Sequence record: PV654397.1
Length of the DNA: 64,000 nucleotides
Origin: Escherichia phage WPEC5
Strand: one strand, 5' to 3'
How positions within the stretch are numbered: the first letter of the stretch is position 1; every line of letters starts with the position of its first letter. A model generated the notes under the pieces. The model was given only the letters and a program-made list of their open reading frames with translations. It was not told the origin of the DNA and did not search any database. The position numbers and the translations under genes were made by a program. Shown in pieces: positions 1,385 to 63,244 of the stretch.

Positions 1385-1861
1385 TTATTTTAGAAAGTAT
1401 AAGTGTTTTTCTGCATTAACCAGTCTGTGGTCAATGATTTCTTTGATAACGTTCCAGTTACCACCGCCTAAATCGGCTCCAATTTTCGGGAAGTGTACAT
1501 GAACAGTGCGTTCAACGTTACATAAGTAATTGAGTTGTTTGAAAACATCATCGATTGCATCATAACTCACATACTTAGAACCGTCATTACCATAGTACTT
1601 TTGGGTAATGCAGTTTGCGATAAGCAAATCATCACTTATAGAAGAATATGAAATTTGTCCTGTTCTTAGAAATCCCATTTCCTTTTCATATGCTTTATAA
1701 TCATCATATGCCATCGGATAACGATTTCTTAGTTCTTTTGCAAAACCCGAACCCATCTTACCCTGTGCATTACAACCATGAGCGATTATATGCAACGCGG
1801 TTTGATCATCAGTAACAGTGTTGAATAATTCAAACAAATTACCTAGGTGTTCATGTATCAT
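1385..1861 (-). CDS. macro-like domain protein (putative ADP-ribose binding/processing)
   Basis: Gly-rich loops NAQGKMGSGFA and IGADLGGGNW resemble macro-domain ADP-ribose loops; divergent. Confidence 0.5.
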   Translation of the reverse strand: MIHEHLGNLFELFNTVTDDQTALHIIAHGCNAQGKMGSGFAKELRNRYPMAYDDYKAYEKEMGFLRTGQISYSSISDDLLIANCITQKYYGNDGSKYVSYDAIDDVFKQLNYLCNVERTVHVHFPKIGADLGGGNWNVIKEIIDHRLVNAEKHLYFLK

Positions 1862-1871
1862 TATATTCTCC

Positions 1872-1901
1872 GAAAAGAAAGGACTCTGTAATCAGAGTCC
1901 T
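1872..1901 (-). terminator. intrinsic terminator
   Basis: Perfect 9-bp stem aggactctg/cagagtcct, loop taat, then TTTCTTTTC on minus strand. Confidence 0.55.
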
Positions 1902-1912
1902 TAATTTATATT

Positions 1913-2170
1913 TTATTCTTCTTCACCGAATCGAATTTTTTTCAATTCTTTTCGTTGTTTGCGAGCAATGGTACTTTTGTGAAGTCTATTACCACGTTTT
2001 GTGTCTTTCGTAATGTACCATGAATCTTCTGGTGCATCATAATCACAATAACCATCTTCTGTAATCGTCCCTAAGAAAGCAGACTTTTTAGGAATGGATG
2101 TTTGAGCTTTAGCAGCGAATTGGCCTTTTGCTAATTGTTCACGAAAACTGAGCATAATAGTATCTCCCAA
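1913..2170 (-). CDS. hypothetical basic protein (85 aa)
   Basis: Track ORF; Lys/Arg-rich C-terminus. Confidence 0.5.
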   Translation of the reverse strand: MGDTIMLSFREQLAKGQFAAKAQTSIPKKSAFLGTITEDGYCDYDAPEDSWYITKDTKRGNRLHKSTIARKQRKELKKIRFGEEE

Positions 2171-2200
2171 ATTGTTACGAAGAACTTGTGTTCTTCATTA

Positions 2201-2443
2201 TTATTTAGGGTTGCTCGAAACCTCTACTGAAGCGATGAATGCCAAAATATCATCTTTACTGAAAGCTTCAATAATATAAGCAACCGCTTTATCGTACTGT
2301 TCTTTCTTAGTAGTGTATTCTTTCATTTTGTGAATTTTACGTTGTGCTTTAACTTTTGCAGCTTCCATATCAGGCATTTTAAATTCAACACCCAATGTAT
2401 CAGCTAAATGTTTTGCACGAGATGATACTTTATCAATATTCAT
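2201..2443 (-). CDS. hypothetical protein (80 aa)
   Basis: Track ORF, co-oriented. Confidence 0.5.
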   Translation of the reverse strand: MNIDKVSSRAKHLADTLGVEFKMPDMEAAKVKAQRKIHKMKEYTTKKEQYDKAVAYIIEAFSKDDILAFIASVEVSSNPK

Positions 2444-2691
2444 TAATTCCAGCGACCTTCTTTAAGACCTTCAACGAAACCAGTACAGCCACCTGGAACG
2501 TAAACATCGTTTACGAAAATTTGTGGAACCTGTCGTACTGGCTCACCACATAGTTCAGATAGTTTAGCACCATCAATACCAGCGGTAACAATATCGATAA
2601 ACTCCATATCAAATTTGTTATTTTCACATACTGCTTTAGCAGTGTCGCAGAATTTACAACCAGTAGTGCGACCATAAATTTTAACTTTCAT
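2443..2691 (-). CDS. nrdC: glutaredoxin-like protein
   Basis: 82 aa, N-terminal C-K-F-C redox motif; resembles T4 NrdC (CVYC). Confidence 0.65.
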   Translation of the reverse strand: MKVKIYGRTTGCKFCDTAKAVCENNKFDMEFIDIVTAGIDGAKLSELCGEPVRQVPQIFVNDVYVPGGCTGFVEGLKEGRWN

Positions 2692-3094
2692 TTCTTTTCC
2701 CTTTATTTCGTTGAAACATCGTAACAGCCTTTATTATACTGTTACACATTCGTTCAGTCAAATACTTTTGACAATCTAGTACATCAATGTACATGAACTT
2801 ATCCAATTCTGGGTGACTTCTACCATATCTGTTTGTGTAAGTACTTTTACACACCAACTCTTCTGGTATAGGCTTATCTTTGGCTGTATAGAAAAATAAA
2901 ACTAAACGTTTCCCCTTTCTATACGATACATCACCAAGAAACAGAAGATCATCTTCATCGATTTCATATCCTGTCTCTTCGTAGCATTCACGTACAGCAG
3001 CCTCTTTAAATGTTTCTGTACCTTCAGTTTTACCTTTAGGTAAGTCCCAGTGATTCTGTCCGTGTTGTATGCCCGATAAGTATCTGACCATCAC
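2681..3094 (-). CDS. Nudix hydrolase
   Basis: Complete Nudix box GKTEGTETFKEAAVRECYEETGY (Gx5Ex7REUxEExGU). Confidence 0.8.
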   Translation of the reverse strand: MMVRYLSGIQHGQNHWDLPKGKTEGTETFKEAAVRECYEETGYEIDEDDLLFLGDVSYRKGKRLVLFFYTAKDKPIPEELVCKSTYTNRYGRSHPELDKFMYIDVLDCQKYLTERMCNSIIKAVTMFQRNKGKRNES

Positions 3095-3200
3095 GATAAA
3101 ATATTATACCACAGCTATAACGCATAATCTTATCTCTTTATCATCAAGTGATGTTCAGATACTAGTAATTATATCAGAAGATGTTAACTTGTCCCAGCTT

Positions 3201-61227: not shown

Positions 61228-61493
61228 ATATTCACCAAATCCACAGAGAATAGGTCGTTATCAAATTTATATGAAAGTACTAATCTACCACCGAAACTAT
61301 CTACTCTAAGTATCTTTCGTTTTTTTCCATTAATGACAATTTCAGTATTAACAAAATACTCACGTAATTCTTCTAGATAATTTGACCATATTTTATGGGT
61401 AAACGCATTTTTATTAATTGTGTTAGTACTTCGGTGATTGTGGTGTAATTTAAATAATTCCATATAAGTGAATTGTATATGTTTGTAATTCAT
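61224..61493 (-). CDS. paralog-array protein A (89 aa)
   Basis: N-terminus MNYKHIQFTY. Confidence 0.5.
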   Translation of the reverse strand: MNYKHIQFTYMELFKLHHNHRSTNTINKNAFTHKIWSNYLEELREYFVNTEIVINGKKRKILRVDSFGGRLVLSYKFDNDLFSVDLVNI

Positions 61494-61505
61494 ATTTCCC
61501 CTTAC

Positions 61506-61533
61506 AAAAATAGCCCGAACTTATGTCGGGCTA
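61506..61533 (-). terminator. intrinsic terminator
   Basis: 8-bp stem tagcccga/tcgggcta then TTTTTG on minus strand. Confidence 0.5.
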
Positions 61534-61539
61534 TATGTA

Positions 61540-62199
61540 TTATTCATCGTCATCATCGTCGTCGAGATCTAGGTAAATGTCACTATCACCATCATCGAAG
61601 TACTCAACCACTACACCAGGAATGTTCAGTGCTGTGAACATCGCATCATATTTTTCATCAGATGGGATAAGAACAAACTCATCAATGCTTTGAATTTCAG
61701 GCATACGATCTTCAGGAATACCCATTTGCAATAAGGATTGGATGATTTTTTCTTTGTATTCTTGGAACTTCTCTTCTGATTCAAAATCCATAATAAGTTG
61801 TGCTACATAACCATCTTCGTTACCAAATGCGATTGACATTTGTGCATCAGTACCGACATATGACCATGTACGCTTGCCAGTATTTTTCTCAATGAAGTTC
61901 TGAATTTCAAGAACGATTTCATGACGAGAACTATTGGCAATGTTGTTAAGGTTAGCAACACCAGCAATAATTTCTGAACTGTCATTGGATTCTTCGAATG
62001 TGCCATAGTCACCTAATACATATTGAACACCATCACAATGTAATGCATATGCATAATCCAAATCAGCAAGTGAATCACACTTACCACGGATTGGGCGTAG
62101 GGAAAGCCCTAGGCGAAGATAACGAAAGTATGTATTAGTATTTGTATTTGTCAACGTAATGCTCCTTAACAATATAAAAGTAGTTGCTGTTGTTGTCAA
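61540..62199 (-). CDS. hypothetical protein with poly-Asp C-terminal tail (219 aa; start uncertain)
   Basis: C-terminus DIYLDLDDDDDDE; N-terminal 60 aa low-complexity and overlaps upstream gene. Confidence 0.45.
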   Translation of the reverse strand: MTTTATTFILLRSITLTNTNTNTYFRYLRLGLSLRPIRGKCDSLADLDYAYALHCDGVQYVLGDYGTFEESNDSSEIIAGVANLNNIANSSRHEIVLEIQNFIEKNTGKRTWSYVGTDAQMSIAFGNEDGYVAQLIMDFESEEKFQEYKEKIIQSLLQMGIPEDRMPEIQSIDEFVLIPSDEKYDAMFTALNIPGVVVEYFDDGDSDIYLDLDDDDDDE

Positions 62200-62443
62200 A
62201 AAAGATGACTAATCCTTTGTAGACATTTACACCAATCTTGATTTGGCATATTTTATTCGATTTACAAGCCTCAGTCAATAACATTTTGTGCTCTTTACTG
62301 AAAGTGTGGAAGAGTGGTTTTACATGCCACATCTCCACACCATCTAGTACTGGAAAATGTTCACTGAATTTGATCATTGATTCTTGCAAAAAATAACCTG
62401 TTAGATTCGAATCATCAGACATGTAAGTTCGCCAGGAAGTCAA
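62135..62443 (-). CDS. hypothetical protein (102 aa)
   Basis: Track ORF. Confidence 0.5.
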   Translation of the reverse strand: MTSWRTYMSDDSNLTGYFLQESMIKFSEHFPVLDGVEMWHVKPLFHTFSKEHKMLLTEACKSNKICQIKIGVNVYKGLVIFFDNNSNYFYIVKEHYVDKYKY

Positions 62444-62708
62444 TTACTTCGTCATGTGTTAACTTATCACTACGCTCTAGAACATTGATGATGAATGGTG
62501 TTTGACTATATAATTCAGCCAGAAACGCAACTTCATCAGATGTATAAGAATATCCCATAGGAACAACTTGTGCAGTCCAGTTTCCTAAAGTTTTGTTTGC
62601 AATGATTGCAACCACCGTATTACCTTTGAATTCAACATGGATTGAACGGAAACCCGAATCCTCATTCTGATCCCAAAGTACTGGGTTAGTTTTAAACAGT
62701 ACTGACAT
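62415..62708 (-). CDS. hypothetical protein (97 aa)
   Basis: Track ORF. Confidence 0.5.
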   Translation of the reverse strand: MSVLFKTNPVLWDQNEDSGFRSIHVEFKGNTVVAIIANKTLGNWTAQVVPMGYSYTSDEVAFLAELYSQTPFIINVLERSDKLTHDEVIDFLANLHV

Positions 62709-62710
62709 AG

Positions 62711-63244
62711 TTATTTCCTCATGTATTTTATTACATCTTCAAATAGTTTAGTTTTCAGTGCATCATCATTACCAGGTAGAAAAGTACTGAAGCTATTAAA
62801 ATCTTCATTCTTGGCAAACTCACGCATCTGTGTGGAACTGTAGCGACTTATATTTCGGTCAATTCCAGCTTGAACTGCCTTGATTGAACAAAAATTATAT
62901 AACTTCCCATTGTACGTGTCAAGTGTTTTTTGGAATGGTTCAAGTCTATCTGAACCACATATGAAAAGAACATCTAAGTACTTTCCATCCAGTTCTCTCA
63001 TTATATCAAACAGATTATCTTCTGTATAGATATTTTCTTGTACAGATGGGTAAAATCCTTCTGTATAGTACATTTTCAGTTCAGGAGGTAATGGGTTTTT
63101 GATGGCATCAGTACTGGTACTAAGGAATATTTTCAAATCAGCATTGTACTGTTCTTGTAGTGCTTGTGCTTTTTCAAACACTAAGCCATGTCCGTGATGT
63201 ATTGGGTTACATCTCATGAATGATAGTATACATGTTTCTTTCAT
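62711..63244 (-). CDS. cytidylyltransferase-fold nucleotidyltransferase (NMN/NaMN adenylyltransferase-like)
   Basis: HxGH motif (NPIHHGH) and downstream ISRYSSTQMR (ISSTxxR-like). Confidence 0.5.
   Translation of the reverse strand: MKETCILSFMRCNPIHHGHGLVFEKAQALQEQYNADLKIFLSTSTDAIKNPLPPELKMYYTEGFYPSVQENIYTEDNLFDIMRELDGKYLDVLFICGSDRLEPFQKTLDTYNGKLYNFCSIKAVQAGIDRNISRYSSTQMREFAKNEDFNSFSTFLPGNDDALKTKLFEDVIKYMRK

Follow-up and report, generated by a model that had tools for sequence, protein, structure and literature searches.

NAD- and ADP-ribose-related genes of Escherichia phage WPEC5 as probable parts of three independent, already catalogued modules

Do dispersed genes with folds that act on NAD (nicotinamide adenine dinucleotide) or ADP-ribose derivatives form one co-ordinated set in a large coliphage, or do they belong to separate modules? 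This question is raised by a 64,000-nucleotide stretch of Escherichia phage WPEC5 (PV654397.1), the whole of which is called the window here. A first-pass annotation had singled out four of its genes, for a macro-like protein, a Nudix hydrolase, a Sir2 protein and a nucleotidyltransferase with an HxGH motif, and had proposed that together they could reverse host ADP-ribosylation, hydrolyse ADP-ribose-derived signals or rebuild NAD+. The observation itself is confirmed, since all four open reading frames (ORFs) are intact on the minus strand exactly at the coordinates of Table 1 and have strong family matches; each of the four fold calls is supported. The notion of one co-ordinated set fares less well, as the four genes are spread over three neighbourhoods, each conserved on its own: the macro and Nudix genes 0.8 kb apart beside a gene for a CCA-adding enzyme, the Sir2 gene at the head of a cluster of its own, and the HxGH gene next to a methyltransferase gene. 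We put at roughly 0.6 the probability that the four are parts of three independent modules, standard in large myophages and already catalogued. Folds, orthology, the order of the genes and the lack of salvage homologues are observed directly. Sequence and profile comparison settled the families of the macro, Nudix and Sir2 proteins; profile and structure comparison did not resolve the HxGH protein to a nicotinamide mononucleotide (NMN) adenylyltransferase (NMNAT), for which the profiles were non-discriminating.

Judging from its sequence, the window comes from a ~350-kb Rak2-like jumbo myophage of the genus Asteriusvirus. Escherichia phages fEgEco12, Ecwhy_1, EC.P1 and TH47 are 97-99% identical to two 6-kb pieces of the window over their full length, and PBECO4/121Q-type phages are 80-86% identical to the same two pieces (megablast). 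The gene set is already known, near-identical phage genomes carrying the annotations Sir2-like, nudix hydrolase, phosphatase/Appr-1-p processing and cytidyltransferase; the same stretch of fEgEco12 is annotated with a "phosphatase", two "nudix hydrolase" genes and a "Sir2-like protein", and the "cytidyltransferase" label for the HxGH gene is present in other records. Of jumbo phages, 56% have been reported to carry Macro domains, 45% Nudix and 33% NadV; these domains co-occur above chance, mostly as stand-alone early or virion proteins (Iyer et al. 2022, Viruses 14:1977, PMC9503650). It has also been reported that "NAD-jumbo phages" carry both synthesis and consumption genes (Li et al. 2024, PMC11662467). 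The present set is an ordinary instance of this published picture, without the synthesis arm. Phage anti-DarT2 macro factors and NAD-reconstitution pathways have already been shown experimentally elsewhere, and the finding as such adds little.

The missing synthesis arm is best seen by comparison with sister genera. In phages CBB, BF, Yen9-04 and RaK2, the slot between the dCMP deaminase and Sir2 genes holds a NadM-type bifunctional NMNAT/ADP-ribose pyrophosphatase, NadV (together the NAD+ reconstitution pathway NARP2) and a small 2H protein; the same slot of the window (38887-41210) has an HslV-like gene (39110-39772) and a ClpP-like gene (40053-40661) instead. With RaK2 NAMPT as query, the phage collection yielded all other Rak2-like genera at 50-60% identity, and no PBECO4-type phage. 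Salvage genes were sought by tblastn in the window and in the complete genome of phage TH47, whose compared proteins are 96-100% identical to those of window genes. The queries were CBB NadM, CBB and RaK2 NAMPT, CBB 2H, E. coli Prs, an archaeal NMNAT and a pantetheine-phosphate adenylyltransferase (PPAT), the last three being approximate sequences. No homologue of NAMPT/Namat, NadM or Prs/Adps was found at E < 1 in the window or in TH47, and most queries gave zero matches. By these comparisons, the lineage has lost, or never had, the NadM-NadV pair that its sister genera keep just upstream of Sir2, and the set would therefore be unable to rebuild NAD+ by any known route. Because the TH47 genome shows no NAMPT, NadM or Prs-like gene, the proposal that the set rebuilds NAD+ is not supported. 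Relative to the NARP2 systems (NadV/Nampt with a NadM/NatV Nmnat) of KVP40 and other Rak2-like phages, the window and TH47 thus differ in having neither Nampt nor NadM by tblastn; the HxGH proteins form a family apart from NadM (hhalign probability 22%), and Yen9-04 has both.

These results bear directly on the idea of a joint, NAD-centred counter-defence, in which the macro and Nudix proteins would destroy ADP-ribose signals or adducts and the HxGH protein, as an NMNAT, would rebuild NAD+ after depletion of the Thoeris, DSR or SIR2 type. The idea is attractive in that phages are known to rebuild NAD+ via NARP1, NARP2 and NARP3, that the pairing of Macro with Nudix domains in phage genomes exceeds chance expectation (PMC9503650), that the HxGH family and NadM have N-terminal GRxxPxHxGH and KNP(L/F) motifs in common, and that JGI automatic annotation labels some HxGH members as nicotinic acid mononucleotide (NaMN) adenylyltransferases. 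We nevertheless regard it as very unlikely. The lineage is without a source of NMN as far as the above searches detect. Published data show that 94% of phage Nampt genes are accompanied by an Nmnat, the two working as a pair. Sister phages with a real NadM-NadV pair also carry an HxGH member; the HxGH family is near-universal in cyanomyophages, often N-terminal in proteins of 500-1200 residues and with one member in virions; structural comparison places PPATs first (below); and hidden Markov models (HMMs) of NMN and NaMN adenylyltransferases score far under their thresholds on the HxGH protein, at ~17 bits against cut-offs of 112-150 (NCBIfam NadD models, 16.9 and 16.3 bits versus 150 and 112). 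The distance of up to 60 kb between the genes, in three neighbourhoods, points the same way.

What, then, is the HxGH protein? Its HHGH (residues 16-19) and SSTQMR (residues 136-141) motifs are conserved in its family and common to the whole superfamily, and it falls in PHROG 3041 ("cytidyltransferase", 7.7e-52). An exhaustive profile search yielded 3225 homologues. In 108 of the 150 best representatives, which are metagenomic, the domain is N-terminal in a longer protein (~240-1200 residues), some of these proteins carrying Zeta-toxin/AAA_33 kinase, DUF5824 or Hint/intein domains. By tblastn the family is present in 537 phage records, ~436 of them from cyanophages and annotated "cytidylyltransferase" (T4-GC0190); a cyanophage paper called the function of the family unclear and detected the protein in purified virions. 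The protein of the window belongs to this "cyanophage cytidylyltransferase" family (T4-GC0190, PHROG 3041/395), at 30-35% identity to cyanophage proteins. It differs from its relatives in being a minimal, stand-alone form coupled to a Dam-like gene, while many of them are multidomain and one cyanophage relative is virion-associated.

An AlphaFold2 (AF2) model built from an alignment of 65 sequences reached a predicted local distance difference test score (pLDDT) of 94.5; it replaced a first model from eight close relatives (pLDDT 75), with which Foldseek gave weak matches at template modelling (TM) scores of ~0.38. With the better model Foldseek ranked PPATs first (E ~2e-6, TM 0.58-0.66), as the top six and most of the top 50 matches, with NaMN adenylyltransferases interleaved. 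Searched against the PDB with phmmer, the protein itself had no match, and its profile gave marginal ones: the TmcAL-like, tRNA-acting MJ0951 at 4e-5, then a NaMN adenylyltransferase at 0.039, a PPAT at 0.13 and an NMNAT at 0.27. Alignment of the family profile by hhalign to single sequences of NadM, an archaeal NMNAT, a PPAT and NadD (the last three approximate) gave probabilities of 5-40%, with no discrimination among them. The similarity to PPAT is one of fold, the sequence matches (profile E 0.13 in the PDB, hhalign 23%) not being significant. The modelled structure indicates a genuine small adenylyltransferase-type enzyme of the HIGH superfamily with an NMNAT/PPAT-like fold; its identity as an NMNAT is not established, and a PPAT, the case that would have refuted the first-pass assignment, is neither confirmed nor rejected by these matches. 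As Yen9-04 has a canonical NadM (g096) besides its HxGH member (g051), the HxGH protein is therefore not the NMNAT of that phage.

The HxGH gene overlaps that of a Dam-like DNA N6-adenine methyltransferase, and the two would form a translationally coupled pair, which, like the NadM of Yen9-04, speaks against a salvage role. The two genes are also adjacent in fHe-Yen9-04 (g050/g051; 42% and 34% identity) and in Klebsiella phage fENko-Kae01, so that the pair is kept in three Rak2-like genera; it is absent in cyanophages, where the HxGH gene lies with DUF6267 and a second "cytidyltransferase", a context that gives no functional clue. The HxGH protein may be unrelated to NAD altogether, as a PPAT-like enzyme or another adenylyl- or cytidylyltransferase that acts with the methyltransferase on DNA or a nucleotide precursor, or is delivered in the virion. 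This is possible, though we rate it somewhat below even odds. It agrees with the Foldseek ranking, with the match to a tRNA-acting enzyme as the best profile hit in the PDB, with the conservation of the Dam adjacency across three genera, with the fusions to kinase, DUF5824 and Hint domains in metagenomic proteins, and with the cyanophage homologue in the virion proteome. It has to contend with the lack of a significant match to any PPAT HMM, with the absence of the Dam adjacency from cyanophages and with a gene context that points to no candidate substrate. We picture the HxGH enzyme as a probable ATP/NTP-dependent nucleotidyltransferase of a large phage-specific family, and as something other than the NMNAT of the lineage. 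At long odds, the protein and its cyanophage family could be stand-alone NMN adenylyltransferases with which phages that have no Nampt re-ligate NMN and ATP to NAD+. Were this so, NMN might come from Metis-type cleavage of NAD+ into AMP and NMN or from a NAD-dependent ligase, and the family would provide a one-gene route of NAD reconstitution distinct from NARP1, NARP2 and NARP3. With thousands of members, and as part of the core of cyanomyophages, the biochemical identity of this family is the one open item of some value here. A NAD-dependent DNA ligase in the window was considered and dropped, the DNA ligase of the window being ATP-dependent.

The second neighbourhood is a cluster of five co-directional, partly overlapping genes (35447-38877) headed by Sir2. 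The Sir2 protein aligns end to end with the E. coli CobB structures 6rxj and 1s5p (2e-21, PDB), and its NAD-binding motifs GAGLS and TSNMDD and the catalytic His of LHGNL align with those of CobB; where CobB has its Zn site, with a module of four Cys, it has two Cys (LCEV...NCGY). It is 43.6% identical to AQW88637.1 of Serratia phage BF and 62% identical to the Sir2 of RaK2, both of them syntenic. Sirtuin homologues occur in 986 phage records, T5 and rV5 types included. No PADLOC family, among them the defence-type SIR2 proteins ThsA, DSR and SIR2-HerA, matches the protein at E <= 1e-3. A role as a defence-like NADase was rejected on the grounds of its likeness to CobB and the lack of any match to a PADLOC SIR2 model.

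Downstream of Sir2 come a second Nudix gene, a gene for a cREC (cyclic-phosphate-processing receiver-like) protein, one for a small conserved protein with no Pfam match, and a PIN-PhoH gene; the second Nudix, cREC and PIN-PhoH genes had been overlooked in the first-pass annotation. The second Nudix start overlaps the Sir2 stop codon (ATGA), and the protein scores 67.8 bits with PF22327 against a cut-off of 27, with REVQEE kept at NUDT16 spacing. The orthologous counterpart of the cluster in Serratia phage BF is the "type 1 sirtuin neighbourhood": BF_0112-0115 keep the same order, at 44% (Sir2), 47% (Nudix), 58% (cREC), 45% (small protein) and 69% (PIN-PhoH) identity, the cREC protein matching the C-terminal half of a fused Nudix-cREC protein and PIN-PhoH matching BF_0115. 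This order is also kept in RaK2, fHe-Yen9-04 and CBB, and Sir2 and the NUDT16-like Nudix are adjacent in Asteriusvirus, RaK2, GAP32, CBB, BF, Yen9-04, EJP2 and A4. The cluster has thus already been described, as the conserved neighbourhood of a distinct clade of phage sirtuins with AQW88637.1 as the example (Iyer et al. 2022, PMC9503650). The window agrees with that description in the order of all five elements, at 44-69% identity. It departs from it in two respects. First, Nudix and cREC, fused as one protein of ~300 residues in BF, CBB and Yen9-04, are separate genes here: at the junction (37565-37579) they are in the same frame with an in-frame TAG and three codons between them, and cREC has a GGAG ribosome-binding site of its own. 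The gene may simply have been split, or the TAG may be a candidate for read-through. Second, there is no adjacent 2H gene and no upstream NadM-NadV, the ClpP-like and HslV-like genes occupying that slot; no homologue of the CBB/BF 2H protein was found in the window or the complete TH47 genome (tblastn, CBB 2H query).

For this sirtuin clade, a KptA-like, NAD-dependent removal of RNA 2'-phosphates has been predicted, with 2H, cREC and Nudix proteins processing the cyclic-phosphate and ADP-ribose products (PMC9503650). Following that proposal, the sirtuin would use NAD+ to modify damaged RNA ends, placing ADP-ribose on a 2'-phosphate (or an acyl group), and the cREC, 2H and Nudix proteins would then process the cyclic-phosphate and ADP-ribose by-products. 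If the sirtuin uses NAD+ in this way, the module would therefore consume NAD+ and would not protect it. An RNA-repair setting is credible from the gene content, since the window also has genes for RNA ligase 1 (Rnl1), a T4-type polynucleotide kinase/phosphatase (Pnkp), a CCA-adding enzyme, an RlaP-family protein and a sub-threshold 2H candidate. By their family matches Rnl1 and Pnkp are a tRNA-repair pair. The 2H candidate, annotated "viral L protein" in fEgEco12, has two HxS/T motifs (AHVSI at residue 56, YHITI at residue 126); it is likely a 2H phosphoesterase and might open cyclic phosphates as a partner of the RNA-repair genes. The lineage, which keeps a presumably NAD-consuming Sir2 cluster without the NadM-NadV pair of its sister genera, therefore offers a natural comparison of whether the Sir2 module needs phage-made NAD+.

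This prediction can be extended to a single NAD-dependent pathway that joins Sir2, cREC/2H, macro and Nudix, like yeast Tpt1, Cpd1 and Poa1p. The sirtuin would convert an RNA 2'-phosphate to ADP-ribose 1''-2'' cyclic phosphate, cREC or 2H would open it to ADP-ribose-1''-phosphate (ADPR-1''P), a Poa1p-like macro protein would dephosphorylate that product, and the Nudix enzymes would degrade the ADP-ribose. Such a role has been predicted for exactly this sirtuin clade (PMC9503650), the macro protein matches yeast Poa1p at 2e-6, the Poa1p-like phage protein Adpp has been proven to act as an ADPR-1''P phosphatase, the gene of the CCA-adding enzyme is next to the macro gene, and the window is rich in related functions (Rnl1, Pnkp, RlaP, the CCA enzyme, cREC, PIN-PhoH and the candidate 2H). 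We still consider one joint pathway unlikely. No sirtuin is known to act on RNA 2'-phosphates, and T4 Rnl1 and Pnkp repair ends without leaving one behind. Sir2 and the macro gene are 36 kb apart; the T4 homologue of the macro protein has been tied by experiment to DarTG2, in a phage that has no Sir2; and the match to Poa1p covers residues 5-93 only, SCO6735 and Bt_1257 matching much better.

Alternatively, Sir2 could be an ordinary CobB-like lysine deacylase that reprograms host or phage protein acylation, with the macro and Nudix proteins merely clearing the O-acyl-ADP-ribose (OAADPr) produced. Macro domains do deacylate OAADPr (PMC9503650). The best matches over the whole length of Sir2 are the structures of a deacylase, the NAD-binding residues and catalytic His are kept, and none of the sirtuins in the 986 phage records, those of T5 and rV5 types included, has a known role. 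Nonetheless, the cysteines of the CobB Zn ribbon are largely gone, and the Arg of the Tyr-x-x-Arg pair by which CobB and Sirt5 recognise the acyl group is not aligned (FYNTLR versus FYNARR). The conserved partners of Sir2 are moreover RNA-end-processing domains (cREC, PIN-PhoH, NUDT16-like Nudix) and not genes related to acyl-proteins. A plain deacylase is, on balance, rather improbable.

In the third neighbourhood, the macro gene is accompanied by small hypothetical genes and by genes for glutaredoxin, the NudE-type Nudix and the CCA enzyme. The macro protein matches Pfam Macro under the gathering score (E 5.7e-4) and belongs to PHROG 335 ("phosphatase", 2.9e-46). Its best match in the PDB by phmmer is Bt_1257 (2fg1; 1.2e-15, residues 22-151); SCO6735 (5e3b) is third-best (3.3e-11, residues 22-148), and yeast Poa1p (6lfu, at the E-value and over the segment given above) and TaqDarG (8.6e-4) follow. 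DarG profiles match as well (PADLOC 1.6e-10, NCBIfam 4.5e-8), T4 Tk.4 is 29% identical (BLASTP, E 5e-12), and the macro/Tk.4 family was found in 1978 phage records. Asn31 aligns with the Asn of the HxCN motif of Bt_1257 and SCO6735, and Gln87 with the position of SCO6735 Q85, TARG1 K84 and DarG K80 (the GQH of Bt_1257 and SCO6735). Knockout of tk.4 sensitises T4 to DarTG2, tk.4, named adfM, being the one T4 gene required there (bioRxiv 10.1101/2025.11.20.689424); PhiKZ gp104 AdfM clears DarT2 marks from DNA (PMC13309987); and SCO6735, with an essential Gln85 where DarG and TARG1 have Lys, efficiently strips DarT-made thymidine-ADP-ribose from DNA (PMC9411070). The macro protein resembles Tk.4/AdfM, PhiKZ gp104 and the SCO6735/Bt_1257 subclass in being a stand-alone macrodomain of ~155 residues with the HxCN Asn and a Gln at the Q85 position; it differs in being just 27-30% identical to any characterised member, and it is without the catalytic Lys and a DarT-binding domain.

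Another known relative is Adpp, the Poa1p-like phage macro protein, which acts on ADPR-1''P inside NARP1 operons (Osterman et al. 2026 preprint). The macro protein shares with Adpp the macro fold, a detectable, though partial, similarity to Poa1p and the PHROG 335 "phosphatase" assignment. However, the macro gene shares no operon with Adps and Namat, and no Prs-like or NAMPT-like gene was found by tblastn in the window or in TH47. As the Adpp role works in NARP1 operons, which have no detectable counterpart here, an anti-DarT2 role is therefore the best-supported guess for the macro protein, by analogy with its homologues, with processing of ADPR-1''P or OAADPr as alternatives. The substrates and infection roles of all these genes are inferred. 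Most probably the macro protein takes ADP-ribose off a 1''-linked substrate. The leading candidate is thymidine-ADP-ribose set on phage DNA by DarT2-type toxins, in which case the protein would be an orphan antitoxin ("AdfM") as in T4; ADPR-1''P is the second candidate. The proposed reversal of host ADP-ribosylation is thus plausible for the macro protein, given its Tk.4/AdfM homology and SCO6735 subclass. As an obvious candidate anti-DarTG2 factor, the gene bears on the host range of therapeutic jumbo coliphages.

The Nudix protein encoded next to it has an intact Nudix box (GKTEGTETFKEAAVRECYEETGY, Gx5Ex7REUxEExGU) and 40-42% identity to NudE (e.1) of T4, T6 and T2 (tblastn). It resembles T4 NudE in this identity over the catalytic core, in size and in a T4-like tk...e region near the macro gene; the identity spans only residues 14-103. 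NudE acts on ADP-ribose, FAD and Ap3A (PMC9503650), and the ADP-ribose chemistry proposed for the Nudix protein is in keeping with its T4 NudE type; it would split free ADP-ribose or related dinucleotides to AMP and ribose-5-phosphate after the macro protein has acted.

Several points count against the reading of three modules with these roles. NARP1 and NARP2 are not recognisable in the lineage, although no profile search covered NadR/PnuC (NARP3) or further NAD genes outside the window. The RNA-repair role of the sirtuin is a computational prediction; next to Sir2 the window has no 2H gene of the kind found with the cluster in sister genera, its only 2H candidate lying 30 kb from Sir2 and scoring under the Pfam threshold. 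Linkage of Sir2 and Nudix is seen within one phage clade only, so common descent could explain it; outside the Rak2-like clade, the Nudix gene of Aeromonas phage LAh_9 is not beside a sirtuin. As for the macro protein, the catalytic Lys of the DarG/TARG1 type (TaqDarG K80, PhiKZ K78) is absent, Gln87, directly followed by a Lys, standing in its place (in that alignment column T4 Tk.4 likewise shows no Lys), the identity to Tk.4 is low, and there is a resemblance to Poa1p-type ADPR-1''-phosphatases.

Table 1. Features of the window that bear on NAD, ADP-ribose and RNA repair
Feature	Position	Strand	Basis
Stand-alone macrodomain protein, 158 residues	1385-1861	minus	ALC1/TARG1-like class, SCO6735/Bt_1257 subclass; homologue of T4 Tk.4 (AdfM)
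Nudix hydrolase, T4 NudE (e.1) clade, 137 residues, GTG start	2681-3094	minus	Pfam NUDIX 9.6e-12; PHROG 1185 5.7e-46
CCA-adding tRNA nucleotidyltransferase	3201-4316	minus	Pfam PolyA_pol 4.8e-18 and RNA-binding domain; PHROG 2244 2e-115; adjoins macro/NudE
Candidate 2H phosphoesterase, 136 residues	7895-8305	minus	Pfam 2H-SAK PF22547 E 5.9e-5, 23.8 bits against gathering score of 27
RlaP-family Pol-beta nucleotidyltransferase, 412 residues	17359-18597	minus	RlaP PF10127 3.8e-17; hypothetical in relatives
PIN-domain endoRNase fused to PhoH-like ATPase, 479 residues, last of Sir2 cluster	35447-36886	minus	PIN_4 4.5e-20; PhoH 8.7e-45
Small conserved cluster protein, 100 residues	36948-37250	minus	45% identical to and syntenic with BF_0114; "membrane protein" in relatives
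cREC protein, 106 residues	37247-37567	minus	Pfam cREC_REC PF20274 1.9e-23
Second Nudix, NUDT16/X29-like, 183 residues	37577-38128	minus	PF22327 1.4e-18; PHROG 9999 6.6e-79; PDB NUDT16 9e-12
CobB-like (class III) sirtuin, 250 residues, first of Sir2 cluster	38125-38877	minus	Pfam SIR2 1.3e-19; PHROG 2162 7.9e-74
T4-type polynucleotide kinase/phosphatase (Pnkp)	53638-54570	minus	Pfam HAD_PNKP 5.8e-43
RNA ligase 1 (Rnl1)	55393-56535	minus	RNA_lig_T4_1 4.6e-14; T4_Rnl1_C 2.6e-16
HIGH-superfamily nucleotidyltransferase, 177 residues	62711-63244	minus	HxGH ... SSTxxR; "cyanophage cytidylyltransferase" family (T4-GC0190 / PHROG 3041)
Dam-like DNA N6-adenine methyltransferase, 174 residues	63241-63765	minus	Pfam Dam PF05869 2.3e-32; ATGA overlap 63241-63244 with HxGH start

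In the window as a whole (G+C 34.8%), the minus strand holds 116 of 122 genes by a greedy ORF call. ARAGORN found no tRNA or tmRNA genes in its 64 kb, despite the tRNA-repair and CCA-adding functions encoded there. Two genes could encode proteins like peptidyl-tRNA hydrolase: one at 667-1044, called "aminoacyl-tRNA hydrolase" in fEgEco12 yet without a Pfam match, and one at 48577-48996 with a weak PTH2 match (E 1.2e-4) just under the gathering score. At ~32067-33405, three small unrelated ORFs stand where fEgEco12 has g228, a 323-residue "WGR domain-containing protein" that has no counterpart in the window and seems frameshifted in TH47; the difference looks like a cassette replacement between phages that are otherwise 97-99% identical. 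The WGR (PARP-associated) protein had been considered as a member of the set and was dropped, its gene not being in the window. A DUF4326 protein (27236-27562, E 3.7e-24) is encoded between two genes that carry the fEgEco12 annotations of a nucleotide reductase and of the protein that activates it, presumably the anaerobic pair NrdD/NrdG.

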